From NCBI RefSeq assembly GCF_053078305.1, contig NZ_CP166879.1: a stretch of 64,000 nt of DNA, one strand, 5' to 3'. The position numbers and the translations under genes were made by a program. The notes below the pieces were generated by a model, which was not told where the DNA came from, did not search any database, and was given only the letters and a program-made list of their open reading frames with translations. Every line of letters begins with the position of its first letter. Position 1 is the first letter of the stretch. Below are positions 3,809 through 58,703 of the stretch, piece after piece.

Positions 3809-4159
3809 TTTATTCTGCCGAATATCGCAAAAACAGCATATCGCAAAACTTATAACCATAATTAATGGAAAAGTGCAGAAAATTATTCCACTGAATGCTT
3901 TTAATACAGTTGGTTAGCTAAAAAAATATCATTTTTTGATTTCAGTCATTGAAAATTGCAATGCGTGACGATTCAACAGCATTTAAGTGAGTTTCAGGAT
4001 ATGGGAAGGACATGAAAGGAGGAGCGTAATAAAACACACAGGAAGAAGGGGAAAATGTTTCGTAAAAACAGAAAATTAACAGCGCACATCAGGAAACTCA
4101 GTCTCCTGATTCAGTGCTACCACATGAAAATTTAGTTAACTGTTACCGTACTAAAATTT

Positions 4160-4351
4160 ATGTCAGAAGATGTTCCATTACCGAAAGTCAATCAGCGATA
4201 CAAAGACGATCATGGTGCGCTTGTCACCGTGACCAGTGTTGAGGAAACCCGGGTGGTGTTTATGCGGGAGGGCTATCCGCATCCCTGCATGCGACCGATG
4301 TACAACTTTCTGGGAAAATTCAAACCCGAAGCTCGGGAAGAAACAGAATAA
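4160..4351 (+). CDS. Small hypothetical protein (63 aa)
   Basis: ORF only; no family recognised. Confidence 0.3.
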   Translation: MSEDVPLPKVNQRYKDDHGALVTVTSVEETRVVFMREGYPHPCMRPMYNFLGKFKPEAREETE

Positions 4352-4403
4352 AACGAAATCCCTGCCGGCAATCACACTGCCTGATGGCAGCATAATCCAC
4401 TTA

Positions 4404-4712
4404 TTAATTCTCATCCCCGGAGACAAGCCCGGAAAACCACTCCGGGTGTTCACTGTATGCCGTGTTCAGCGCATCCCAGGAAACGTTTATATAAAAGCTG
4501 TCCTGCAATTTCCGGGTAACCACCTCTGCCAGGCGGTTCCGGTTATCCACCAGTCCAGCATAACCTATCTCTGCCAGCCACTCATTCAGTTCATGTTCCA
4601 GAGACAGATTGACAATATCGTAATCGGACCTTGCCATTCCCGTTTCCTTAGCACATGTTTTCAGGCACGGGGATAAAGTATAAAGAATGTCGTACTGCTG
4701 CTGCCAGAGCAA
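4404..4712 (-). CDS. Hypothetical protein (102 aa), possibly the 3' part of a frameshifted gene
   Basis: ORF immediately downstream of 4733..5392 in another frame. Confidence 0.3.
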   Translation of the reverse strand: MLWQQQYDILYTLSPCLKTCAKETGMARSDYDIVNLSLEHELNEWLAEIGYAGLVDNRNRLAEVVTRKLQDSFYINVSWDALNTAYSEHPEWFSGLVSGDEN

Positions 4713-4732
4713 TATTCCCCCTGATGGTTGTA

Positions 4733-5392
4733 TCAGAGATGGTATGCCGGTACTTTGCGGGTTGTTCCTGTCAGGTTATCGTGCACCTCCACGGTCGTGG
4801 TCACCACCGGCATTCCGGCCTTTCTCAGCCTCAGAACATCAGCCGCAATACGCTGACTGCCAAACCAGAACAGGCCGTCCAGTGCAGTCACCAGTAAACC
4901 CGCCTCCAGTGCATACTTCAGCCGTTCACGGGGCGCTTTCACTTCCCGGGCAACCTGCTGATATGGCAATGATGTGTTTTCATTCCCAACCACGCGACGA
5001 ATACGGTGAGACAGATGATACCGGAATGTATCCGGCACACCAGAAAGGCTGGCCTTCAGGCTGTACACGCAGCCAAACCGTTTATCGTTAAACACCACAT
5101 TTTTCTGACTGATGTCCCATTCTTCACGCAGCGCGGCAATCAGTTGTGGTGTCCGGGTAAGCAACAAGCGAAAAGGCAGTTCAAAACTGGTGACGTAATC
5201 CACATTCAGCAGTGCAATACGCAGCCGTTCTTCTGGCCCGGCCTCTGTCTGCCGGCACTCCTCCAGAACATCCTGCCACTGCTGGCGAAGACAGGGCGAT
5301 TCGTTCCGTTCTGTAAAACAGTATTTATCCGCCAGATAGTCAATTCGTGTATGCATACTGAAGAGTATTCCGTATAAAGATTCAGCTGGCAA
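4733..5392 (-). CDS. Hypothetical protein (219 aa), possibly the 5' part of a frameshifted gene
   Basis: ORF in the minus-strand gene block; the next ORF starts 21 nt downstream in a different frame. Confidence 0.4.
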   Translation of the reverse strand: MPAESLYGILFSMHTRIDYLADKYCFTERNESPCLRQQWQDVLEECRQTEAGPEERLRIALLNVDYVTSFELPFRLLLTRTPQLIAALREEWDISQKNVVFNDKRFGCVYSLKASLSGVPDTFRYHLSHRIRRVVGNENTSLPYQQVAREVKAPRERLKYALEAGLLVTALDGLFWFGSQRIAADVLRLRKAGMPVVTTTVEVHDNLTGTTRKVPAYHL

Positions 5393-5444
5393 AACTTTAT
5401 CAGTCTGTAAAAACTAACGGAAGAGTCGATATTTCTCCCGTCCA

Positions 5445-5942
5445 TCACCGGATGATTGTTGCAATACCCCGTGGCATCAGAGACTGAACAGCCGTTTTTA
5501 ACGCAACGTATTGCTCTGATGTATCAGGCCGGACAACCCGAAAACACCTTTCCACCCGGCATTGTCCGCCAGCGCTTATCACCGGCCAGGTCTGTTGCAG
5601 TAAATCCGCCACTTGCGAACATGCTTCATCAACTGTAACACTGGCCCGCGGATGGCAAACACTCGTCTGGCTGAGCAGTAACAGGCAGCGTATTGTTGCT
5701 CCTCCATGTTGTTCCCGCAACCAGCGTAATACCACCGGCGATGATGGGCTGGCAGTGTGATTACGCACAGTAATAAGTTCATAAAAGGAAGTACAGAATG
5801 TCTGAATCTGTTGACCACAGACGCCTTCTGTCGAATGAAGTGTGAAGTGGATTGCCAGCAGATGTGGCCTGTGATCCACCGCCTGCTGCACAAAACGCCG
5901 GATTTCCCCCGGCTCTGAAAGTAAGGCTTCGGTTATTTGCAC
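5445..5942 (-). CDS. Hypothetical protein (165 aa)
   Basis: ORF only; may be a separate gene or a C-terminal remnant of the upstream Gp2-like gene. Confidence 0.35.
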   Translation of the reverse strand: MQITEALLSEPGEIRRFVQQAVDHRPHLLAIHFTLHSTEGVCGQQIQTFCTSFYELITVRNHTASPSSPVVLRWLREQHGGATIRCLLLLSQTSVCHPRASVTVDEACSQVADLLQQTWPVISAGGQCRVERCFRVVRPDTSEQYVALKTAVQSLMPRGIATIIR

Positions 5943-6291
5943 TATTTTATCTCTGTTGAATTTGGTTAAGTCGGTGCAGACTCATCAACACAAGTACGGT
6001 TCGATGCAAACAGCTGTGACTGGCAATATGAAAGGAATGATGAATCAGTCAGGATGACAAAGTGCCGTCTGACCGGAGGGGACACAGGAAGATTCACGGA
6101 GGGACCAGCACTAGGGAACAGCGCCACATCCCGGGTGGTACTGCTTTGATGCGCCCGGTGACACAAAGCCCGGATTGTTCCAGACATCCTGAATCAAACG
6201 CCCCAGATCAGGGGCGTCGAAATATGCCTCTCTGGCCATTATATTCCGGCGTACAGGTAGCAGGTCAGAAGTGACAATGCGTCACCTAACG

Positions 6292-6858
6292 TTAAAAGTC
6301 ACTACACCCAAGATGACGTTCAACAGCACCATGCGATTCAATGTAAGCCCGGGCTGTCTGTTCCAGTACACCAGGCTCAGCGTTGTATGTGTTAGCTGCA
6401 TCAAATACCAACGACAACACTTCAGGATACACAACCAGATGTGTAATGGAGTTATCTTCACTCAATACTTTTCCCCACGCCTGCTCAATCAGATTTCTTA
6501 GAACCACCACCTCACGACTCTTACACCAGACATCGTTATTAAGTAGCAGCACCATAAGATAAGGAGTGGTATCGTTAGCCACAGCTTCCCTACTCCAGAG
6601 ATAATATAAAGGGGTGGGCTCAACAGATTTATCTTTACGTCTCTTGCACTGCAAATATTCAGAAATGAGTCTATGCAGTTCACCAGTAAAATCAGCCATC
6701 AGAGAGGGAATGGCCTTATTAATACCCTGCCCTGGTATTAATTTAAATTGTAATAATTTAATTTCAGGATGTGTAGCTGCAGCCCGATACAGAGTTGCAA
6801 GGACACACTTTTGCCAGAGGGCGTTACAGGAAAGCTTAACATTTGATTCTGTATACAT
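6292..6858 (-). CDS. YagK/YfjJ-family (inovirus Gp2-like, DUF3296) protein
   Basis: 188 aa; segments HPEIKLLQFKLIPG, LYYLWSREAV and YLMVLLLNNDVW resemble my recollection of E. coli YfjJ/YagK. Shorter than typical (about 280 aa), so possibly truncated. Confidence 0.5.
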   Translation of the reverse strand: MYTESNVKLSCNALWQKCVLATLYRAAATHPEIKLLQFKLIPGQGINKAIPSLMADFTGELHRLISEYLQCKRRKDKSVEPTPLYYLWSREAVANDTTPYLMVLLLNNDVWCKSREVVVLRNLIEQAWGKVLSEDNSITHLVVYPEVLSLVFDAANTYNAEPGVLEQTARAYIESHGAVERHLGCSDF

Positions 6859-7329
6859 AATAAATCACCTTACAGTTACAACAGGTCAAAAACCGCTGTA
6901 GCCAGAGTTACGCTGGCCTGATGCTTTAGTGTCGAGCTTCGTCAGATAATCCAGACGTGCCAATAAGCGCTGATACTGCTCAGGGAAATCAGGAGCATTA
7001 ATATCCTGGATGTCACGTCCATTAGCAGGGAAATGAACAATGCAGCCCCCTGGATTAACTATGCAGAAATCATCCTGAGGCACTGATAAATACGGAGAGG
7101 ACTCTCGCGTATGGTTGATTGACACCACAGTGCGAATTCGGCGAATGCGAGATCACGGTACGATTCCGCACCACACTACCAATCAATACCCCGGGTTTTA
7201 TTCAGGTAAGCAGGACTGCGGATATCCGGTGTCGCGCCTTTGTGTCACGAACGGGGTGGGTGCGAAACACCAGATAAAATACAGGTTGGCAATACCTCTG
7301 AACGCCCTGAGCAGGTCGGGCATTTCGGA

Positions 7330-7755
7330 TTAAGTACTCGCACCTCCGCAGTCCTCAAACAAGTCTGGCTGGTAGCTGTAAACAGACTTCGTACATACCG
7401 CTCTGCAATAAATCCCCGTACCACAGGCCTCACAGAACTTCTTCCCATGAAAAAACTGCTCACACATCACACAATGCCACTCCAGCACGACCGGTAATGG
7501 CGATAAAAACATCGCCATATCCTCAATGTAAGGGTGGGACTTCTCCGGATTCAGCACCACACAGTCCGCCTTCTGTTGCTCACTCAGGGCATGTAAATCA
7601 TGCTCAAACCACGCCCCCTGAGCATCTGTCTGCAGAATCAACCGGCCATGGCAGGAAAGGCAGAAACACTGCCGGATATTTCTGCTGAGCGCAGAGTCGG
7701 CACTGATAATGTGCTCACCCGGCGTGATCCCCAGCCCCGTTTTTATACCGTTCAT
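7330..7755 (-). CDS. Zinc-ribbon protein, paralog B (141 aa)
   Basis: Cys clusters CFCLSCHG and WHCVMCEQ...CEACGTG, plus WFEH and LPVV motifs shared with the upstream paralog; start overlaps the upstream stop by 4 nt (ATGA). Confidence 0.55.
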   Translation of the reverse strand: MNGIKTGLGITPGEHIISADSALSRNIRQCFCLSCHGRLILQTDAQGAWFEHDLHALSEQQKADCVVLNPEKSHPYIEDMAMFLSPLPVVLEWHCVMCEQFFHGKKFCEACGTGIYCRAVCTKSVYSYQPDLFEDCGGAST

Positions 7756-8135
7756 TCTGCTCCCCCCTCCTCACTGAAGCGCCCGGTCTGGCAGTGTGTG
7801 CAGTACTGCTCCCCATAATAATCGTGGTGACATTGCCTGCAGTGCCAGCTGGCTTTACGTACTACGGGTAAGGCATCCGGGACGAATTGCTGCAGACGTT
7901 TAATCAACCGTATTTCTCTGCGTTCCGGCCTGACATAAGGGCACTCATGACCGTGCTCCGTCAGCCCTTCGTCAGCGTGTTCAAACCAGGGCCGTTCAGT
8001 GTCGTATTGCGGGTGGTATCTGAGTGCACTGCCGCAAAGGTGGCAGGTGTAGCTATCGTAAGGTGCAGTCTGTGCGGTACGGGCACCGGTCAGACGTCCG
8101 TTGCCATCAAGTGCGAGAAAAGATTTTGCGTACAT
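7752..8135 (-). CDS. Zinc-ribbon protein, paralog A (127 aa)
   Basis: Cys clusters CHLCGS and WHCRQCHH...CTHCQTG with WFEH motif; GAGGAA ribosome-binding site upstream of ATG at 8135. Confidence 0.55.
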   Translation of the reverse strand: MYAKSFLALDGNGRLTGARTAQTAPYDSYTCHLCGSALRYHPQYDTERPWFEHADEGLTEHGHECPYVRPERREIRLIKRLQQFVPDALPVVRKASWHCRQCHHDYYGEQYCTHCQTGRFSEEGGAE

Positions 8136-8507
8136 AGTATATGTTCCTCAGCCGCCAGACGACACGCAGGCAACAGCCGTCCCGGTACGGGCAGCGTGGT
8201 CAGGGTGTGAATGGCGGTTCAGTTAAAATCTGGACTGGAGTTTGGGTAAAGCAGGCTGGTTGCTGTTACAGCACTGTGGTTGTCACACAATGGCCCACTG
8301 ACGTAAAAAACAGTCAGTAAGCAGAGATGGAGATTGGGGGATGTGCTGTATCGGTTGCCGGAAGGAATGGTAAAGAATGTGTCATGGTTAAATCTCCGTA
8401 TGGTTCATACGGAATGGCCACGCCGTAAAAAATGCGCAGAGCCGCTGAAGTGGCCGCCGGAACCGACAGCAAAGATTAGCGCCAGCCCGTACTTGTCGTT
8501 CAGGGGC

Positions 8508-9107
8508 TTACACCAGAGCACATATCCCCGGCAGGGGGCTGTCCAGTCGTGGTCGACCACGGTTACTTTTTTCAGGAAGCCCGCTGCATTTCAGGATGAT
8601 GCCACATTCTTTCTGTTCCCGTTTGGCCAGGTAGCTGATGGCATAGCGTAAATCATTCACCGCTTTGTGATCTGAATAGTGAATGACGTGGTTAATGTTT
8701 ACCGGATAATTTTTATTAAACCGGCACCAGTGGTAGTAACCATTACCATCGGTAACCCGCCTCCAGATATCTCCCATCAATCTGGATACCAGATACGAAC
8801 TCCTGTGGATCTGACCGTTCAGATAGCCCACAAAATGAATGTGAAGCCCTTTACGTTCTGTATATTCCATCACCCAGGCATACCCGACCAGTTTCTCTCC
8901 CACCTCGTTAATCAGTTGCAGCATCTCCGCGCACATGGCGTACCTGCAGGCGCATCCGTAGCTGAATGTGTTTTTTCGGTAAGCAAAATCCATTCTGAAC
9001 GGTAACAGCTTCGAATAGACCCCGAATAATGAATCCAGATGCTGGTTAAAGTGTGTCAGGAGCTGGGGAGCCATTTCGTAAGCGGGATTGGTGTTATAAG
9101 TTTGCAT
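8508..9107 (-). CDS. YagK/YfjJ-family (inovirus Gp2-like) protein, second paralog
   Basis: 199 aa; motifs YAWVMEYTERKGLHIHFVGYLNG resemble the conserved core of the YfjJ/YagK family; GAGGAA ribosome-binding site before ATG at 9107. Confidence 0.5.
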   Translation of the reverse strand: MQTYNTNPAYEMAPQLLTHFNQHLDSLFGVYSKLLPFRMDFAYRKNTFSYGCACRYAMCAEMLQLINEVGEKLVGYAWVMEYTERKGLHIHFVGYLNGQIHRSSYLVSRLMGDIWRRVTDGNGYYHWCRFNKNYPVNINHVIHYSDHKAVNDLRYAISYLAKREQKECGIILKCSGLPEKSNRGRPRLDSPLPGICALV

Positions 9108-9338
9108 GTTTCTTCCTCGTGTTCTGTAACACAGGAAGAAGCGCTGGCGTAATTTTTGAAGAAAACGTTATCACACGAAGACGTGCAAGTTCACAACTCC
9201 CCGGGCGCCACAGAGAAAGTGGGAGCACACCCGGGTATCAGAACCATACAGAGAACGGCATACGTGACTGTCAATCACAGCGCAGATAATATCTGATATG
9301 ATGTCATTGTGACGACTGTACTTCATCAGAAACATTTA

Positions 9339-9551
9339 TCAGGTAACATATTTCCAGACTGAAGCGGGAACACGATCGTAAAGTTTGTTCATGGTCAGTT
9401 CTGCCAGCCGGTGATCGACCGCAGAGTTGAAGGCTTCCATCTCCGCTGGAGTAAGCTTATAACGCGTGTGGGAAATCACTTTTTCCAGTGTCTCCCGGGA
9501 TGAACAACGACGGAACTGATACAGCCAGTCTTCTTTGGTCTTAACTTCCAT
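9339..9551 (-). CDS. Hha/YmoA-family modulator paralog (70 aa)
   Basis: C-terminal [22 protein letters not shown] is near-identical to the Hha signature as I recall it; start ATG at 9551 chosen inside the longer 117 aa ORF. Confidence 0.75.
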   Translation of the reverse strand: [70 protein letters not shown]

Positions 9552-9699
9552 TATCCTCTCGTTATTTTGTGCTGTGATTAACGTTAACATAATACCGTCA
9601 GAATAACGTATTCTGACGTCATCCCGGAAGTCTTTCCACTTTCCTGTCTCTCCGGTAATAAAACATTTTAAATGCTGAAGGCATAACGCCATAACCAGA

Positions 9700-10190
9700 T
9701 ATTACAAGTAACGTGGCGTTACACGTGTTAATGCATTACAGAAGTAACAGAGACAATCAGATAGTAAACAACACTCCGGAAGACTGTTTAATGGCATAGG
9801 TATACTTTTTACGATCACAATATTATATCACTACCAAAATTCATCAGGTGAACTGCAAAAGCAAAACATTAACAGTTCTCCCTCAACCACCGTTATCCAC
9901 ACTATTGACACTGACGATTCATACTCTTATTTAGCCAGAATAGCCTCCACACAACAGGCATTACTTAACAAAGTACATTACAGTCAGTGTGTGTACATGA
10001 CAGATTTATATTCAGGTGTTACGAGATTACATTACAGCAGAGAGAGTTAAGGACAGAGTTACAAGTACTACTACAGAGAATATCTCTGTACAGATACTTC
10101 TATGAGCATATCTTTATGAGAGATCCGTCTACAGGATTGGGTTACAAGGTGGAATTACAGAATTACAGGGTTCATTTACATAACCATACT
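9700..10190. repeat. AT-rich divergent intergenic region with about ten degenerate TTACA(G/A) repeats
   Basis: ATTACAG at about 9734, 9975, 10028, 10153, 10161; GTTACAAG at 10057 and 10141; related copies at 9710 and 9719; lies between the minus-strand block ending at hha and the plus-strand block starting at 10503. Confidence 0.6.
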
Positions 10191-10502
10191 TCTATAAATA
10201 ATACTAATTAACCTTAATTATTTTTTAATAGTACATGAACTGCCTGTAGCTGTAACGACAAATCACCCAAAATGAAAAATACTGGTTATCACGGTTCAGA
10301 GAACTCGTATAAGTACCTCCCCCCTGAGCAATGCTTCATTTTCTGTGGTTCTATGTGATAGAGTTATGCTGAGTACAGTGGCAGTAACCCTGCTTTCCAC
10401 CACTCAATGACAAAACACACAAAAAATTAATTATATGAATTAACAGTGTTTTTTATGGAATGTTATGCATATCAACCAATATGATTAACAGAAAACTTCA
10501 TC

Positions 10503-11294
10503 ATGACAACACGTATAACTTTCAATATGACCAGTGATGAGACGCTGCGAATTGTGGATGAGTACTGTCATACCCACAAACTTTCGCGCTCTAAGGTAAT
10601 CGACGCATTACTCAGCGCCACAGCACCTGTCCTTAACGATATTAACTGTTATTATCAACTTGCAGGCAAACTGCAGTCACGCTTATTAAATGGAGTGTAT
10701 CAACGGGATCTTCCTCACAAACGCAATGTCGTCAGTGCAGAGAAGTATTGTCTGGAAATCTGGGAAAACAAACTTTTCACCAAAAGAATCCTGGAGTTTG
10801 ACAGTTCAAATGGTGTTCTATACGCGCTGAAACATAAAAGACACTATCGCCGGGATAAGATGATTGGACGGGTTGAAAGCCGGCGTATCAAAGACATTTG
10901 CGAATACCAGATGCAACTGTCCGGGGAGAAGGCAAAATATGCCTGTTTTATTTATATTGAAAGAACAATATACAATCACGATAATCCATCCGGTGAAACA
11001 CCTGTAAAAGCGGCTGTTGGTAATGCAGTCATCCTGCTGGCAAAAGACGTGATATATGACGAGTACTTTTTTGATCTGCGGCAGTCATTTTTCGTGAGCG
11101 TTAAAGATTTGATGGCCTCTGGCGCAAAAGGTATTCCGGAGACACAGAAATATCCGGACGTTTATTGCTGGATCCCGCTTTTCTCCATAAATTCCGGCGT
11201 GGTCATTACCCCGGTCTATAAAATTGATCCCCGGAAACCCGTAACGGTAAAAAAACCGGATCAGATCACTGTTGTTTGTAATTACAGAGAATAA
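10503..11294 (+). CDS. Hypothetical protein with N-terminal ribbon-helix-helix-like domain (263 aa)
   Basis: N-terminus TRITFNMTSDETLRIVDEYCHTHKLSRSKVIDALL has a beta-strand plus two-helix RHH pattern; the remaining 220 aa is unrecognised. Confidence 0.5.
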   Translation: MTTRITFNMTSDETLRIVDEYCHTHKLSRSKVIDALLSATAPVLNDINCYYQLAGKLQSRLLNGVYQRDLPHKRNVVSAEKYCLEIWENKLFTKRILEFDSSNGVLYALKHKRHYRRDKMIGRVESRRIKDICEYQMQLSGEKAKYACFIYIERTIYNHDNPSGETPVKAAVGNAVILLAKDVIYDEYFFDLRQSFFVSVKDLMASGAKGIPETQKYPDVYCWIPLFSINSGVVITPVYKIDPRKPVTVKKPDQITVVCNYRE

Positions 11295-11676
11295 TTTCAG
11301 TCTTCTCCGTTCACCGCAACAGTGTTTACCTCTGCTTTATCTTCCTTTCAGTAAATACAAACCACAGCTCTGGCAGGTACAGGGCGTGGTTTATCTCCGA
11401 TACTCCCCTGCGCAGTAATAATCATCACTGAAAATACTGATTCCGTCACGGCAAAACGCCATCCCATATTCCGGCAACACAAAATCATCTTCCGTTTATA
11501 CCGGCTTCACTGACAAAACAGACAACCTGTATTGCCTGTACACAACAGTTTCTCTCCTGGCAGGAATATTCCTCAACTTTTTTACGTTTCTCCCCGGTTG
11601 TTATGCCGGTGAAGGTGGTGCGTCGTTTTCATCACCAACGCCGGTTGAGATTAACAACATCCGGAGGAACATTTTC

Positions 11677-11883
11677 ATGAAGACCCCAGTTTCGCTGATG
11701 GATGACCAGATGGTCGACATGGCGTTTATCACTCAACTGACCGGCTTAACCGATAAGTGGTTTTATAAGCTCATCAAAGATGGTGCCTTTCCGGCCCCCA
11801 TCAAACTCGGCCGCAGCTCCCGATGGCTGAAAAGTGAAGTGGAAGCCTGGTTGCAGGCGCGTATTGCACAATCCCGTCCGTAA
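11677..11883 (+). CDS. alpA: AlpA-family prophage transcriptional regulator
   Basis: 68 aa; helix-turn-helix segment FITQLTGLTDKWFYKLIKDGAFPAPIKLGRSSRWLKSEVEAWL typical of AlpA; GGAGG ribosome-binding site at 11664. Confidence 0.8.
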   Translation: MKTPVSLMDDQMVDMAFITQLTGLTDKWFYKLIKDGAFPAPIKLGRSSRWLKSEVEAWLQARIAQSRP

Positions 11884-11968
11884 TTACTGACCGTTATCCG
11901 TTCAACCGCAGCGAATACACTATCCGGCCTCCGGAGGCATTCTGCTGCGTGCTAAAGGAGAGAATATT

Positions 11969-12541
11969 ATGCAAAAACTTGAAAACCGGTGTGATCTGCT
12001 GCTAATTCAGCATCAGAAATGGATGGCAAGTGTAACCCGGTTTATTGTCGCTCATGGAATGGGCTCTCCGCATCTTCATGGTTATCACCGCCTGACCCTG
12101 GCTCACTTTTTTCTACCGGAAAAAGGCACCATCATCTCAGTGGCACCACAGGGACTCTATCAGGTCGTCAACCCGGGAACGCCACCGTTCATTCCTGCCA
12201 TTCAGGAAGGGTTAATGACCAGCATTCAGACCCATGAAATCATGCTGCTTACGCATTTTAATCTGGGCGGCGTTTTACTCAGTGAGCTACATCGTCTGGG
12301 CGAAAGCCGGCTGGCAAACAGGCTGAACAGTCTGCTCCGGCGTTTCGAAGATCGCGATCTCTACCACACGCTGATATGGCTGTGCTGGTATGATCTGATG
12401 TGTGCCCACTCCATGCAGCCCTGGACTGAAGAGTTAAAGCATAAATCACACACAGAGCTTGAAAGCTGGGCTGTGGCGCGCAAACGGGAAAAGCGCGAGC
12501 TTGAACTGATGATTGACGAGTATCTGTTATACGCCTGTTGA
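11969..12541 (+). CDS. Hypothetical protein (190 aa)
   Basis: ORF with AAAGGAG ribosome-binding site immediately downstream of alpA; no family recognised. Confidence 0.45.
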   Translation: MQKLENRCDLLLIQHQKWMASVTRFIVAHGMGSPHLHGYHRLTLAHFFLPEKGTIISVAPQGLYQVVNPGTPPFIPAIQEGLMTSIQTHEIMLLTHFNLGGVLLSELHRLGESRLANRLNSLLRRFEDRDLYHTLIWLCWYDLMCAHSMQPWTEELKHKSHTELESWAVARKREKRELELMIDEYLLYAC

Positions 12542-14121
12542 TTCATAACGCTCCCGGGATTCCTTCCTCATCGTTGCACACAACCGGACGGCTATCTGTG
12601 GCAGTCCGCCAAATGACCCTCGCCGCATTTCGTTCTGCTGAAAACGGTACGTAGCCAGTGATACCGGAATTTCCGGAGAGGGTCGCAGGTATATTGCTTC
12701 TGTGCAATTGATGCTTATTTACATTGGATGTGGTTATTTCTGCATCCAATGCTATCGGAAAGAGATCAACCAGCAAATGGTTCCTCAAATCGTATTGATA
12801 TTTACCCGGTGCATTGAGCACCTCCATCTGACACTCCGTTCCCGCATCAAACGGCTGAACCGGAAAACGATTTGCTTTTCACGCTCCGTGGAAATTCACG
12901 AAAAAGTTATTGGGTCATTCATCGAAAAACACATGTTCTGCTGACTGGAGCCATCACCCGGAAATATACGTCAACTGAACAATAACGATTTTTTCTTTAT
13001 GGGATCCCATACACTTTCCCATACCCCTCTGAAAATCAGTCATCAACTCACCAACACATCTTCTGAAATCTGTATTAAACTTATTGCTTAAATAGATGAT
13101 ATAACACATCTTCCATTGCACGGAATCAGCGAAAACTGTCATTCTGGCAATCTTAACAAGATCATTTATCGGTTAATTTTATCAGTAAACAATGGAATAT
13201 CACACTGATAAAATGAACATTCAGGGTAAGATGATAAAATTCACATAAAAAATGCTGAAGATTATTTATTTCATGCAGATAAACGATAAAATACAAGAGA
13301 GTATATTTTTCAGTGTAAGAGTCAATCGTTCATCTCCACTGACGATCACGGTCAGCACATAAACAAAGTGAGTCCTCCTGCTTAGTCATTGCGTATCAGA
13401 AACTAAAAAACAAAAGATTCTGTAAACAACGTGACATTTTTTATGACATTTCCCGAATACAGATATATCAACAAACAGTAGTCAGCGTTGAATTAATAAG
13501 TTTTACAGGGCTATACGTATCTTATAAAACCACTCAACGACCATCATCACCTGACTATTTAGCGGGAGTATCATCTGTATAAATCCCTAAATAATAACAC
13601 CTGTTATTAAAATAAGAATGCTGTCAGCAGTAAATTATTAACATAACACCTGTCCACTCTATCTGTTCTTCTAACTCAACCGGCATCGAAAATATTGCCT
13701 GATTAGTGCATCATAGCCTTCTTTTTTCTTTCCCGACCATCAAAACAAATACAACATTTACAACCACACAATAAAACAAAACTAAAACATAAGATTAACA
13801 ACACCAATCAACAGGAAAACACTGAATATTGAGGTGCCCTGTAACCTGGAGAGCGCATACGGCGCATGTGATCAACACAGCCCATTCTTTTCTGTCATCC
13901 CCCAAATGCAGAACAAACAAGCATAACCTAATGAATATAAAATAAAATATTATTTTTCACCATCATAAAAACATCAATGTATCTTTATATAAAAACACTG
14001 ACAACATGACATAAACATTTAAAAACATAAACAAATCACAACAAAAACATTTGATAATCACTTAGTGACAAAATAAAATTGAGACGATTTTGTTATAAGA
14101 GAGGCGCCATGGAGTGAGATA

Positions 14122-15211: not shown

Positions 15212-16123
15212 GTGCGCGGGGTTTTGTCTTTTTTCACCGGGAATACATGTATGAATCCGTCTGATGCCATTGAGGCAATTGAAAAACCGCTCTCCTCCCT
15301 GCCTTACTCACTTTCCCGTCACATCCTGGAACATCTGCGCAAACTCACCAGCCACGAACCCGTGATTGGCATTATGGGGAAAAGCGGGGCCGGTAAATCC
15401 TCACTCTGTAATGCACTGTTTCAGGGGGAGGTCACCCCGGTCAGTGATGTTCACGCCGGCACCCGGGAAGTGCGGCGCTTCCGTCTGAGTGGCCATGGTC
15501 ACAACATGGTTATCACTGACCTGCCCGGGGTGGGTGAGAGCCGGGACAGGGATGCAGAGTATGAAGCCCTGTACCGTGACATTCTGCCTGAACTTGACCT
15601 GGTGCTGTGGCTGATTAAAGCCGATGACCGTGCCATGTCTGTGGATGAGTATTTCTGGCGACACATCCTGCACCAGGGACATCAGCAGGTGCTGTTTGTG
15701 GTGACACAGGCCGACAAAACGGAGCCCTGCCATGAATGGGATATGGCCGGTATTCAGCCTTCTCCCGCACAGGCACAGAATATTCGCGAAAAAACGGAGG
15801 CGGTATTCCGTCTGTTCCGGCCCGTACATCCGGTTGTGGCCGTATCGGCCCGCACCGGCTGGGAACTGGATACGCTGGTCAGTGCGCTCATGACAGCGCT
15901 TCCCGACCATGCCGCCAGTCCCCTGATGACCCGCCTGCAGGACGAGCTGCGCACGGAATCTGTCCGCTCTCAGGCCCGTGAACAGTTTACCGGTGCGGTG
16001 GACCGGATATTTGACACGGCGGAGAGCGTCTGTGTTGCCTCTGTTGCCCGTACGGTTCTGCGTGCCGTCCGTGACACGGTGGTCTCTGTTGCCCGCGCTG
16101 TATGGAACTGGATTTTCTTCTGA
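15212..16123 (+). CDS. YeeP/YkfA/YfjP-family GTPase
   Basis: P-loop GIMGKSGAGKSS and G-domain motifs; conserved position upstream of flu. The track ORF starts at GTG 15212; the first ATG is at 15251. Confidence 0.8.
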   Translation: MRGVLSFFTGNTCMNPSDAIEAIEKPLSSLPYSLSRHILEHLRKLTSHEPVIGIMGKSGAGKSSLCNALFQGEVTPVSDVHAGTREVRRFRLSGHGHNMVITDLPGVGESRDRDAEYEALYRDILPELDLVLWLIKADDRAMSVDEYFWRHILHQGHQQVLFVVTQADKTEPCHEWDMAGIQPSPAQAQNIREKTEAVFRLFRPVHPVVAVSARTGWELDTLVSALMTALPDHAASPLMTRLQDELRTESVRSQAREQFTGAVDRIFDTAESVCVASVARTVLRAVRDTVVSVARAVWNWIFF

Positions 16124-16280: not shown

Positions 16281-16494
16281 TATAGTGGTTAATGGTCTGC
16301 GAAAAGGCAGTTGAATCTCTTCATCATGCAGAACGGAATTGCACAAAACGGACTGATACTTCTCTGGCGGATGAGAGAGGGGAAGCATTTATGTCCGGGA
16401 AAAACCACTGTATCTGACCATGCTGTTTTGTACCTGCCGGTATCCACATTTGTGGGTACCGGCTTTTTTATTCACCCTCTGTAAGGAAAAGCTG

Positions 16495-19400
16495 ATGAAA
16501 CGACATCTGAACACCAGCTACAGGCTGGTATGGAATCACATTACGGGCACCCTGGTGGTGGCCTCCGAACTGGCCCGCTCACGGGGAAAACGCGCCGGTG
16601 TGGCGGTTGCTCTGTCTCTTGCTACTGTCACGTCAGTCCCGGCACTGGCTGCTGACACGGTTGTTCAGGCAGGAGAAACCGTGAATGGCGGAACACTGGT
16701 AAACCATGACAACCAGTTTGTATCCGGAACAGCTGATGGCGTGACTGTCAGTACCGGGCTTGAGCTGGGGCCGGACAGTGACGAAAACACCGGCGGGCAA
16801 TGGATAAAAGCGGGTGGCACAGGCAGAAACACCACTGTCACCGCAAATGGTCGTCAGATTGTGCAGGCAGGAGGAACTGCCAGTGATACGGTTATTCGTG
16901 ACGGCGGGGGACAGAGCCTGAACGGGCTGGCGGTGAACACCACGCTGAATAACAGAGGCGAGCAGTGGGTTCATGAGGGCGGGGTTGCCACCGGTACAAT
17001 TATCAACCGCGACGGTTACCAGAGCGTTAAAAGTGGCGGGCTGGCAACAGGAACCATCATCAACACCGGCGCAGAAGGCGGCCCGGATTCTGACAACTCG
17101 TACACGGGTCAGAAGGTCCAGGGAACAGCAGAATCCACCACCATCAACAAAAATGGACGGCAGATTATCTTATTTTCCGGGATAGCCCGTGACACTCTCA
17201 TTTACGCAGGTGGTGACCAGTCGGTACACGGAAGGGCCCTGAATACCACACTGAATGGCGGTTACCAGTATGTGCACAAGGACGGACTTGCGCTGAACAC
17301 GGTAATTAACGAGGGGGGCTGGCAGGTTGTTAAGGCAGGTGGTGCTGTCGGTAACACCACCATAAATCAGAACGGTGAACTGAGAGTACATGCCGGCGGG
17401 GAAGCAACTGCAGTCACCCAGAACACGGGCGGTGCACTGGTTACCAGTACGGCTGCAACCGTTACCGGCATAAACCGCCTGGGAGCATTCTCCGTTGTGG
17501 CGGGTAAGGCTGATAATGTCGTACTGGAAAATGGCGGACGTCTGGATGTGCTGAGCGGACACACAGCCACTAATACCCGTGTGGATGATGGCGGAACGCT
17601 GGATGTCCGCAACGGTGGTGCCGCCACCACCGTATCCATGGGGAATGGCGGTGTACTGCTGGCCGATTCCGGGGCCGCTGTCAGTGGTACCCGGAGCGAC
17701 GGAAAGGCATTCAGTATCGGAGGCGGTCAGGCGGATGCCCTGATGCTGGAAAAAGGCAGTTCCTTCACACTGAACGCCGGTGATACGGCCACGGATACCA
17801 CGGTAAATGGCGGACTGTTCACCGCCAGAGGGGGCTCGCTGGCGGGCACCACCACGCTGAATAACGGTGCCACGCTTACCCTTTCCGGGAAAACGGTGAA
17901 TAACGATACCCTGACCATCCATGAAGGTGATGCACTCCTGCAGGGAGGCGCTCTTACCGGTAACGGCAGGGTGGAAAAATCAGGAAGTGGCACACTCACT
18001 GTCAGCAACACCACACTCATCCAGAAAACCGTCAACCTGAATGAAGGCACGCTGACGCTGAACGACAGTACCGTCACCACGGATGTCATCGCTCAGCGCG
18101 GCACGGCCCTGAAGCTGACCGGCAGCACAGTGCTGAACGGTGCCATTGACCCCACGAATGTCACCCTGACATCCGGTGCCACCTGGAATATCCCCGATAA
18201 CGCCACGGTGCAGTCGGTGGTGGATGACCTCAGCCATGCCGGACAGATTCATTTCACCTCCACCCGCACAGGGAAGTTCGTACCGGCAACCCTGAAAGTG
18301 AAAAACCTGAACGGGCAGAATGGCACCATCAGCCTGCGTGTACGCCCGGATATGGCACAGAACAATGCTGACAGACTGGTCATTGACGGCGGCAGGGCAA
18401 CCGGAAAAACCATCCTGAACATGGTGAACGCCGGCAACAGTGCGTCGGGGCTGGCGACCAGCGGTAAGGGTATTCAGGTGGTGGAAGCCATTAACGGTGC
18501 CACCACGGAGGAAGGGGCCTTTGTCCAGGGGAACAGGCTGCAGGCCGGGGCCTTTAACTACTCCCTCAACCGGGACAGTGATGAGAGCTGGTATCTGCGC
18601 AGTGAAAATGCTTATCGTGCAGAAGTCCCCCTGTATGCCTCCATGCTGACACAGGCAATGGACTATGACCGGATTCTGGCAGGCTCCCGCAGCCATCAGA
18701 CCGGTGTAAACGGTGAAAATAACAGCGTCCGTCTCAGCATTCAGGGCGGCCATCTCGGTCACGATAACAACGGCGGTATTGTCCGTGGGGCCACGCCGGA
18801 AAGCAGCGGCAGCTATGGCTTCGTCCGCCTGGAGGGTGACCTGCTGAGAACAGAGGTTGCCGGTATGTCTCTGACGACAGGGGTGTATGGTGCTGCAGGC
18901 CATTCTTCCGTTGATGTTAAGAATGATGACGGCTCCCGTGCCGGCACGGTCCGGGATGATGCCGGCAGTCTGGGCGGATACCTGAATCTGGTACACAACG
19001 CCTCCGGCCTGTGGGCTGACATTGTGGCCCAGGGAACCCGCCACAGCATGAAAGCGTCATCGGACAATAACGACTTCCGCGCCCGGGGCTGGGGCTGGCT
19101 GGGCTCACTGGAAACCGGTCTGCCCTTCAGTATCACTGACAATCTGATGCTGGAGCCGCAACTGCAGTACACCTGGCAGGGACTCTCCCTGGATGACGGC
19201 CAGGATAACGCCGGTTATGTGAAGTTCGGGCATGGCAGTGCACAACATGTGCGTGCCGGTTTCCGTCTGGGCAGCCACAACGATATGACCTTTGGTGAAG
19301 GCACCTCATCCCGTGACACCCTGCGCGGCAGTGCCAAACACAGTGTGCGTGAACTGCCGGTGAACTGGTGGGTACAGCCTTCTGTTATCCGCACCTTCAG

Positions 19401-19617
19401 CTCCCGGGGGGACATGAGCATGGGTACAGCCGCAGCCGGCAGTAACATGACGTTCTCACCGTCACAGAATGGTACGTCACTGGACCTGCAGGCCGGACTG
19501 GAAGCCCGTGTCCGGGAAAATATCACCCTGGGCGTTCAGGCTGGTTATGTCCACAGCGTCAGCGGCAGCAGCGCTGAAGGCTATAACGGTCAGGCCACGC
19601 TGAATGTGACCTTCTGA
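16495..19617 (+). CDS. flu: Antigen 43 self-associating autotransporter
   Basis: N-terminus MKRHLNTSYRLVWNHITGTLVVASELARSRGKRAGVAVALSLA is the Ag43 signal peptide; repetitive alpha domain and C-terminal beta-barrel ending NVTF. Start set at ATG 16495 rather than the track start 16420. Confidence 0.95.
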   Translation: MKRHLNTSYRLVWNHITGTLVVASELARSRGKRAGVAVALSLATVTSVPALAADTVVQAGETVNGGTLVNHDNQFVSGTADGVTVSTGLELGPDSDENTGGQWIKAGGTGRNTTVTANGRQIVQAGGTASDTVIRDGGGQSLNGLAVNTTLNNRGEQWVHEGGVATGTIINRDGYQSVKSGGLATGTIINTGAEGGPDSDNSYTGQKVQGTAESTTINKNGRQIILFSGIARDTLIYAGGDQSVHGRALNTTLNGGYQYVHKDGLALNTVINEGGWQVVKAGGAVGNTTINQNGELRVHAGGEATAVTQNTGGALVTSTAATVTGINRLGAFSVVAGKADNVVLENGGRLDVLSGHTATNTRVDDGGTLDVRNGGAATTVSMGNGGVLLADSGAAVSGTRSDGKAFSIGGGQADALMLEKGSSFTLNAGDTATDTTVNGGLFTARGGSLAGTTTLNNGATLTLSGKTVNNDTLTIHEGDALLQGGALTGNGRVEKSGSGTLTVSNTTLIQKTVNLNEGTLTLNDSTVTTDVIAQRGTALKLTGSTVLNGAIDPTNVTLTSGATWNIPDNATVQSVVDDLSHAGQIHFTSTRTGKFVPATLKVKNLNGQNGTISLRVRPDMAQNNADRLVIDGGRATGKTILNMVNAGNSASGLATSGKGIQVVEAINGATTEEGAFVQGNRLQAGAFNYSLNRDSDESWYLRSENAYRAEVPLYASMLTQAMDYDRILAGSRSHQTGVNGENNSVRLSIQGGHLGHDNNGGIVRGATPESSGSYGFVRLEGDLLRTEVAGMSLTTGVYGAAGHSSVDVKNDDGSRAGTVRDDAGSLGGYLNLVHNASGLWADIVAQGTRHSMKASSDNNDFRARGWGWLGSLETGLPFSITDNLMLEPQLQYTWQGLSLDDGQDNAGYVKFGHGSAQHVRAGFRLGSHNDMTFGEGTSSRDTLRGSAKHSVRELPVNWWVQPSVIRTFSSRGDMSMGTAAAGSNMTFSPSQNGTSLDLQAGLEARVRENITLGVQAGYVHSVSGSSAEGYNGQATLNVTF

Positions 19618-58404: not shown

Positions 58405-58480
<76 letters not shown>

Positions 58481-58515
58481 TTGGGTGGTCTGTGCCTTAC
58501 AGCACTTTCAAATTT

Positions 58516-58591
<76 letters not shown>

Positions 58592-58627
58592 TTGGGTGGT
58601 CTGTGCTTTGCAGCACTTTTCAAATTT

Positions 58628-58703
<76 letters not shown>

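Follow-up and report, generated by a model that had tools for sequence, protein, structure and literature searches.

A tandem pair of predicted zinc-binding paralogues in the YagK/YfjJ and AlpA backbone of a CP4-like genomic island

The 64,000-nucleotide stretch of DNA analysed here (contig NZ_CP166879.1 of RefSeq assembly GCF_053078305.1; 'the window') carries two short overlapping genes, which we call ZrA and ZrB, among genes of the YagK/YfjJ family, also termed 'inovirus Gp2-like'. The two products are 100% identical to RefSeq WP_000271034.1 and WP_001013320.1, respectively (chicken Escherichia coli isolate). A first reading of the DNA, made from its letters and open reading frames alone (the sequence-only reading), had described the pair as overlapping by ATGA and as encoding paralogues. 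Both observations were confirmed: the genes lie on the minus strand, ZrA upstream and ZrB downstream (table 1), and the two proteins share the same Pfam architecture and match one another by BLASTP at E = 4e-12, with 33% identity across 83 amino acids (aa). As for the motifs listed as shared, WFEH, LPVV, W-H-C-x2-C and C-x2-C-x-T-G do occur in both proteins, but C-x-C-x2-C is found only in ZrB (C30-F-C32-L-S-C35), ZrA having only C31-x2-C34.

The suggestion that no named family fits the pair did not survive profile searches. Both proteins match the Pfam families DUF7828 (PF25165; E = 1.3e-30 over residues 2-87 of ZrA and E = 1.5e-22 over residues 4-85 of ZrB) and Zn_ribbon_11 (PF11682, formerly DUF3279; E = 3.2e-8 for ZrA and E = 3.8e-15 for ZrB), and RefSeq labels the family 'putative zinc ribbon protein' or 'DUF7828 domain-containing protein'. 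By these matches ZrA and ZrB are members of a catalogued DUF7828 + Zn_ribbon_11 family that is named but uncharacterised and has no assigned function; membership of it explains nothing mechanistically. Across 38 diverse members the residues C31, C34, F51, H53, C65, W97, C99, C102, C112 and C115 (ZrA numbering) are invariant, with a ribbon spacing of C-x2-C-x9-C-x2-C, and ZrA and ZrB both keep every one of them. These invariant residues point to one CCHC site and one C4 site per protein, and each Zr protein is thus predicted to hold two zinc sites, in an N-terminal CCHC finger and a C-terminal C4 ribbon. A catalytic domain is absent from both.

The family is small. Among 1.84 billion representative proteins, 267 matched its profile at E <= 0.001, nearly all of them stand-alone proteins of 90-160 aa, with source names in Escherichia, Salmonella, Citrobacter, Klebsiella, Enterobacter, Serratia, Yersinia, Budvicia, Pectobacterium and Photorhabdus; it appears confined to Enterobacterales. 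The top 50 Foldseek matches against AFDB50 all belonged to the same family, with no other fold relative among them. NCBIfam gave no match for ZrA or ZrB and PHROGs only a marginal one, and zero families of PADLOC-DB v2 matched ZrA, ZrB or five neighbouring proteins at E <= 0.1, in agreement with the sequence-only reading, which had found no known defence or toxin-antitoxin family for the pair. The Zr family was not found in phage genome records, and IMG/VR held three loci only. In the literature searched we found no paper using DUF7828, DUF3279, Zn_ribbon_11 or either Pfam accession. UniProt names on family entries include Ybl85 and DUF3279, and the one literature match to 'Ybl85', an unrelated yeast chromatin paper, was set aside. 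Many UniProt/UniRef members are named 'DNA-directed RNA polymerase, beta subunit/140 kD subunit', which appears to be a propagated mis-annotation; the sole link to RNA polymerase that we found was a profile match to RPB9, a subunit with two ribbons, that falls short of significance (E = 0.05).

The ratio of nonsynonymous to synonymous substitution (dN/dS, pairwise Nei-Gojobori) had a median of 0.13 for ZrA, 0.23 for ZrB and 0.30 for the adjacent Gp2-like gene, in loci chosen for an intact pair and from pairwise comparisons that are not independent. Despite this intact-pair sampling, the low values argue that ZrA and ZrB are real genes under purifying selection. The ATGA junction was kept in 8/8 E. 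coli loci, in which ZrA and ZrB have 84-100% protein identity with their counterparts in the window. A GAGGAGG Shine-Dalgarno-like run lies within the 3' end of ZrA, and the overlap is predicted to couple translation of ZrB to that of ZrA.

Loci of related islands were gathered by exact-sequence contig look-ups. Wherever these reach far enough upstream, the Zr gene lies downstream of a YagK/YfjJ gene on the same strand, and this holds for close and for very distant members of the family. The sole exception is a remnant in BL21(DE3) disrupted by an insertion sequence (IS), from which the upstream YagK/YfjJ gene is gone. The order is YagK, Zr, Zr in Escherichia and Salmonella, YagK, AlpA, X, Zr, YagK, Zr in Citrobacter (X being a protein described below), and YagK, AlpA, Zr in the most divergent members; AlpA, X, YagK, Zr and AlpA, YagK, Zr, Zr also occur. 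This Zr/YagK/AlpA arm is transcribed away from a second arm with GTPase, DUF932, antirestriction, RadC and CbtA genes. Different genes follow Zr in different islands: a Dpd 7-deazaguanine cluster with queD, BREX genes (brxL/pglZ), TerB/T5orf172, OLD-like TOPRIM/AAA genes, or SMEK_N/CTD10/MC6/DUF2326 and then an integrase. This variability makes Zr the last backbone gene before a cargo slot, and the slot behaves like a cargo hotspot, often of defence type. Judged from gene order, Zr is a backbone gene of the island with a conserved neighbourhood of YagK/YfjJ, AlpA and Zr, rather than a stand-alone cassette. We hold the identity of the Zr proteins, their family and their backbone status with high confidence.

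ZrA-type DNA was found in 3804 of the 5426 complete E. coli genomes (70%), at a median of two and a maximum of seven places per genome, and a contiguous ZrA-ZrB pair in 1406 of them (26%). The ZrB type is essentially restricted to Escherichia (103 clusters, against 326 for ZrA), and islands elsewhere often hold a single Zr gene. Many genomes that appear to have ZrA only carry ZrA followed by a different second paralogue; this is the case in BL21(DE3), in an E. marmotae/E. coli type and in Salmonella, the latter two with a 13-nucleotide (nt) overlap. In BL21(DE3) (locus L018, NC_012892.2 1973590-1974122) the ZrA-type gene is intact (WP_000270974.1) and the second Zr gene is truncated by IS2, in a decayed island remnant. 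The second-position partners, namely ZrB, 'type C' and the Salmonella Zr132, are about 30-35% identical to one another. A neighbour-joining tree, which has no bootstrap support, places ZrA in a tight clade and ZrB on a long branch in a diverse clade with second-position genes of Salmonella and E. coli, the nearest relative of ZrB being only 35% identical. By this placement the tandem brought two subfamilies together long ago, with second partners that can be exchanged, and is not a recent duplication.

Chimeric Zr proteins, with the N-terminal domain of one subtype and the ribbon of another, were also seen (proteins P0021, P0165, P0173, P0178, P0186 and P0190), P0021 joining a ZrA N-terminus to a ZrB C-terminus; P0233, of 238 aa, is a natural tandem Zr fusion. 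The chimeras and the fusion point to frequent domain-level recombination among Zr copies of different islands. We modelled a ZrA-(GGGGS)6-ZrB fusion with AlphaFold2 from a block-diagonal alignment in which real pairs were combined with linker-anchored single sequences. No sign of a heterodimer came from this crude test, which had a monomer model, a shallow paired alignment and no predicted aligned error: the predicted TM-score (pTM) was 0.42 and the predicted local distance difference test score (pLDDT) 70.9. In the model the linker is disordered and the halves fold independently with the same topology and order of secondary structure, which confirms a common fold for ZrA and ZrB; the pTM is the value expected for two independent modelled units.

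The DNA immediately upstream of ZrA is conserved as well. In a 10-locus alignment the proximal ~200 nt upstream of ZrA-type genes are kept in Escherichia, Salmonella and Citrobacter, whichever type of Gp2-like gene precedes them, and the last ~56 nt form a near-invariant leader (table 1). Each ZrA-type locus has one TTTACGTCA motif, at a fixed distance to the start codon, and it is from this motif onwards that loci with different Gp2 types are homologous. The Gp2-like variants in question are of 199 aa, as in the window, and of 189 aa (L031 3566-4135, L035 3444-4013, L036 3536-4105), with pairs 84-94% identical to that of the window. These alignments indicate that the upstream module has been swapped by recombination just 5' of ZrA. 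By DNA folding the motif lies within the loop and 3' arm of a hairpin, CCCACTGAC-N10-GTCAGTGGG, in E. coli (z = -3.0) and in Salmonella (z = -2.7), and the hairpin is not conserved in Citrobacter or in locus L025. RNAalifold found essentially no covariation in the leader (term +0.07, two compensatory pairs), and Rfam gave no match in 4000..13000. With covariation negligible and the hairpin absent from Citrobacter and L025, neither a structured RNA nor a universal hairpin is supported. No terminator and no strong promoter were found in the gap between the Gp2-like gene and ZrA. A decayed alpA gene in this gap was ruled out by tblastn, and repeats in 7000..9400 look like chance. The TTTACGTCA region may serve as a promoter or operator and move together with ZrA; more speculatively, its hairpin could be a nick site for the HUH protein encoded upstream.

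One link to a protein of described function is to CoiA, the D-loop-resolving PD-(D/E)XK nuclease of natural transformation, whose N-terminal zinc-finger domain (CoiA_N, PF25164) the Zr proteins share. In Streptococcus pneumoniae CoiA the nuclease core (PF06054) spans aa 56-209 (PMC1189080). The Zr proteins, by contrast, continue past the finger with a helix pair and the C4 ribbon and end there without that core; ZrA and ZrB gave no match to PF06054 at E <= 10. The contexts differ too, CoiA belonging to competence and Zr to genomic islands of Enterobacterales, Zr not being found in competence regulons. Zr proteins share a domain with CoiA and are not members of the CoiA family. Their conserved neighbours, the HUH-type YagK/YfjJ proteins, are of a different fold and family from Zr, and the 199-aa copy of the window appears to keep the H-x-H and Tyr motifs of rolling-circle Rep and relaxase enzymes.

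Zr genes are the last gene or genes of a YagK/YfjJ HUH Rep-like operon, often with AlpA, and stand immediately before the cargo slot of P4-integrase/AlpA ('CP4-like') islands. We propose that their products may be zinc-dependent accessories, for recognition or regulation, of the machinery by which the island itself is excised, replicated or regulated. By analogy with CoiA, where a zinc finger stands ahead of a nuclease, the finger would here work with an HUH protein supplied in trans by the neighbouring gene. Taken as a whole, functional Zr paralogues that form part of the island backbone and serve as a zinc-dependent accessory are the best explanation that we can offer, one that falls just short of being probable; the mechanism itself, an accessory of the excision, replication or regulation machinery, is put forward more tentatively.

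Several observations weigh against this proposal. All sampled loci were found through Zr, in a modest sample, which makes the synteny one-directional. The yfjJ locus of E. coli K-12 (in CP4-57) has no Zr gene and yet yfjJ works, or at any rate persists, there, so the HUH protein does not need Zr and the dependence apparently runs one way. The same ZrA-ZrB pair stands behind two Gp2 types that are only ~25% identical, which speaks against tight co-evolution with the HUH protein. Isoelectric points (pI) of 6.5 for ZrA and 5.5 for ZrB (family median 7.3) are near-neutral to acidic and unusual for a dedicated DNA binder, and the N-terminal finger of CoiA has no assigned role to argue from. A bolder version of the proposal makes the Zr proteins subunits of the YagK/YfjJ HUH enzyme that would act in trans on its specificity or regulation, a 'split' CoiA, with the TTTACGTCA hairpin as nick site or origin for rolling-circle replication or mobilization of the island. 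If true, such a module would power the replication or mobilization of the commonest E. coli island family, but we consider it a long shot.

Other readings of the pair have to be set against our proposal of a backbone accessory. An obligate ZrA-ZrB heterodimer as the functional unit would fit the conserved translational coupling at the ATGA, the recurrence in Escherichia and Salmonella of a ZrA gene followed by a second Zr gene, and the one natural tandem fusion; with the halves of the fusion model behaving as independent in a crude monomer-model test, the second partner exchangeable and many islands holding a single Zr gene, we regard it as unlikely. The same facts temper the two-component operon of the sequence-only reading. 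The pair is indeed co-oriented, predicted to be translationally coupled and made of paralogous zinc proteins, and its ATGA junction persists among the E. coli loci; the idea of a fixed unit is nonetheless weakened by common single Zr genes, an essentially Escherichia-only ZrB, the low pTM of the fusion and a second gene that is swapped elsewhere. Two small overlapping genes on a mobile island, with relatives that adjoin BREX, Dpd and OLD/TOPRIM cargo, could also be taken for island cargo, in the form of a cassette of two genes for toxin-antitoxin or anti-phage defence. Toxin-antitoxin partners, however, are unrelated and obligately co-inherited, whereas ZrA and ZrB are paralogues with the same fold and ligands, single Zr genes are common, and the pair is far rarer than ZrA (26% against 70%). 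Searches of PADLOC, NCBIfam and Pfam returned no toxin or defence match, Zr keeps a fixed place with respect to YagK and AlpA, in contrast to the variable genes downstream, and occurrence in 70% of E. coli genomes with several copies in each is unlike the patchy distribution of defence systems. A reading as defence or toxin-antitoxin module is not supported, and we judge such a cassette highly improbable.

A further comparison is with Ogr and Delta of P2 and P4, zinc-finger activators of late genes. Here Zr would be small zinc transcription factors that switch on island or helper genes, the tandem corresponding to the covalently duplicated P4 Delta. In both cases small zinc-binding proteins are encoded on elements with P4-type integrases and occur as tandem or fused duplicates (P0233 among Zr); Zr proteins have two zinc modules and sit on P4-integrase/AlpA islands, and ZrA has its own conserved leader, independent of the upstream gene. 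Against this, there is no sequence or profile similarity, the Ogr_Delta Pfam family matching none of the 38 Zr members at E <= 0.1. The two zinc modules of Zr are distinct and the cysteine spacing of its ribbon is not the Ogr pattern, the proteins are acidic to neutral, there is no known Zr link to late promoters or phages, and none of the phage genomes in the records searched encodes the family. This makes an Ogr/Delta-like role quite unlikely. Acidic to neutral pI and the lack of a catalytic domain would also suit protein-binding anti-defence or host-modulating factors, expressed on entry or activation of the island. Antirestriction/KlcA, DUF932 and RadC genes, which typify early-transfer regions, are also present on these islands. 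Zr, however, lies on the opposite, AlpA/YagK arm, apart from the antirestriction genes, and no similarity to known anti-defence proteins was found, in searches that did not include a dedicated anti-defence library; we find this role very doubtful.

The genes and their family were already catalogued; the additions made here are the CoiA_N link, a strict synteny within the backbone and the conserved leader. The discovery is a modest one, leaving an attractive defence or toxin-antitoxin idea without support. It concerns a family present in ~70% of complete E. coli genomes, at the edge of an island slot for BREX, Dpd and OLD-type nucleases, and its placement in the YagK/YfjJ-AlpA backbone, together with the CoiA finger, turns a 'hypothetical' label into testable ideas on the excision, replication and regulation of CP4-like islands.

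Table 1. Coordinates of the Zr pair, its upstream DNA and neighbouring features in the window, with corresponding regions of other sampled loci (L numbers).
Feature	Position	Strand	Description
ZrA	7752..8135	minus	127 aa; DUF7828 (CoiA_N-like CCHC zinc finger C31/C34/H53/C65) + Zn_ribbon_11 (C4 ribbon C99/C102/C112/C115)
ZrB	7330..7755	minus	141 aa; same two domains (C32/C35/H52/C65; C95/C98/C108/C111) + longer Cys-containing tail
ATGA start/stop overlap	7752..7755	minus	ZrA/ZrB junction, 4 nt
Intergenic region, Gp2-like gene to ZrA	8136..8507	minus	372 nt
Near-invariant leader	8136..8191	minus	~56 nt
TTTACGTCA motif and hairpin CCCACTGAC-N10-GTCAGTGGG	8294..8321	minus
Equivalent upstream DNA	window 8136..8330; L009 5800-6010; L003 5800-6010; L025 4800-5010; L020 4800-5010
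YagK/YfjJ ('inovirus Gp2-like'), 199 aa	8508..9107	minus	Pfam YagK_YfjJ_C E = 1.8e-4; rolling-circle Rep domain REP_ORF2-G2P E = 2.1e-4
YagK/YfjJ family, 188 aa	6292..6858	minus	Pfam YagK_YfjJ_C E = 5.4e-10
80-aa reading frame, YfjJ-like C-terminal remnant	6886..7128	minus	tblastn with K-12 YfjJ aa 150-204, E = 8e-8
Hha/YmoA-family gene	9339..9692	minus	NCBIfam PRK10945 E = 3.8e-30, residues 51-116
AlpA-family regulator	11677..11883	plus	RefSeq 'helix-turn-helix transcriptional regulator'; matches Phage_AlpA genes of related loci
X protein, ~190 aa	11969..12541		directly after AlpA; hidden Markov model matches across loci
GTPase, YfjP/YeeP-like	15212..16123		island arm
Ag43	16420..19617		island arm
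Variable downstream cargo	L034 1-2236; L003 6651-12390; L041 3494-5676; L037 6400-9320; L025 5809-10393

On the minus strand of the window the order is hha-like gene, 199-aa YagK, ZrA, ZrB, 80-aa remnant, 188-aa YagK, a 165-aa hypothetical protein (5445..5942, no Pfam match) and an ECs1377-family gene. The sequence-only reading had placed the pair between two Gp2-like genes. Both are full-length YagK_YfjJ_C proteins by Pfam, but there are three such reading frames rather than two, the third being the 80-aa remnant, which covers positions 154-199 of PHROG 25019 and is annotated in RefSeq as 'YagK/YfjJ domain-containing protein'. In alignments the 199-aa protein, which is basic (pI 9.1), has an intact HUH-like H-I-H and the Tyr motif SYLAKREQK, and the 188-aa protein has neither an H-x-H nor a Tyr motif. 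With both motifs lost, the 188-aa copy is probably catalytically inactive. The two proteins have diverged too far for a BLASTP match (E = 0.089), and in the stretch 6292..7128 partly decayed modules of the backbone seem to have accumulated. The order hha, Gp2, ZrA, ZrB was found in most relatives examined; in two others hha is a frameshifted remnant or absent. The hha reading frame of the window, as called mechanically, has 117 aa and relatives are annotated with ~70 aa; the true start is probably internal and the product about 70 aa.

The window belongs, by gene content, to an E. coli AlpA island of the CP4-44/CP4-57 type, whose layout combines AlpA with an arm of GTPase, Ag43, DUF932, antirestriction, RadC and CbtA/CbeA genes: the window has the AlpA-like gene, the GTPase and Ag43 (table 1), and the same arms are present in the relatives. 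The hidden Markov models for AlpA and X were seeded with window sequences, which makes the window's own matches to them true by construction; the corresponding genes of related loci are called Phage_AlpA by Pfam. X, which has no Pfam or NCBIfam match, is conserved after AlpA in many islands (for instance L003 4022-4555, L009 7502-8089 and L025 3488-4081) and is another uncharacterised backbone gene of these islands. Far from the Zr pair, the minus strand carries a tandem of three tRNA-Gly(GCC) genes at 58405..58703.

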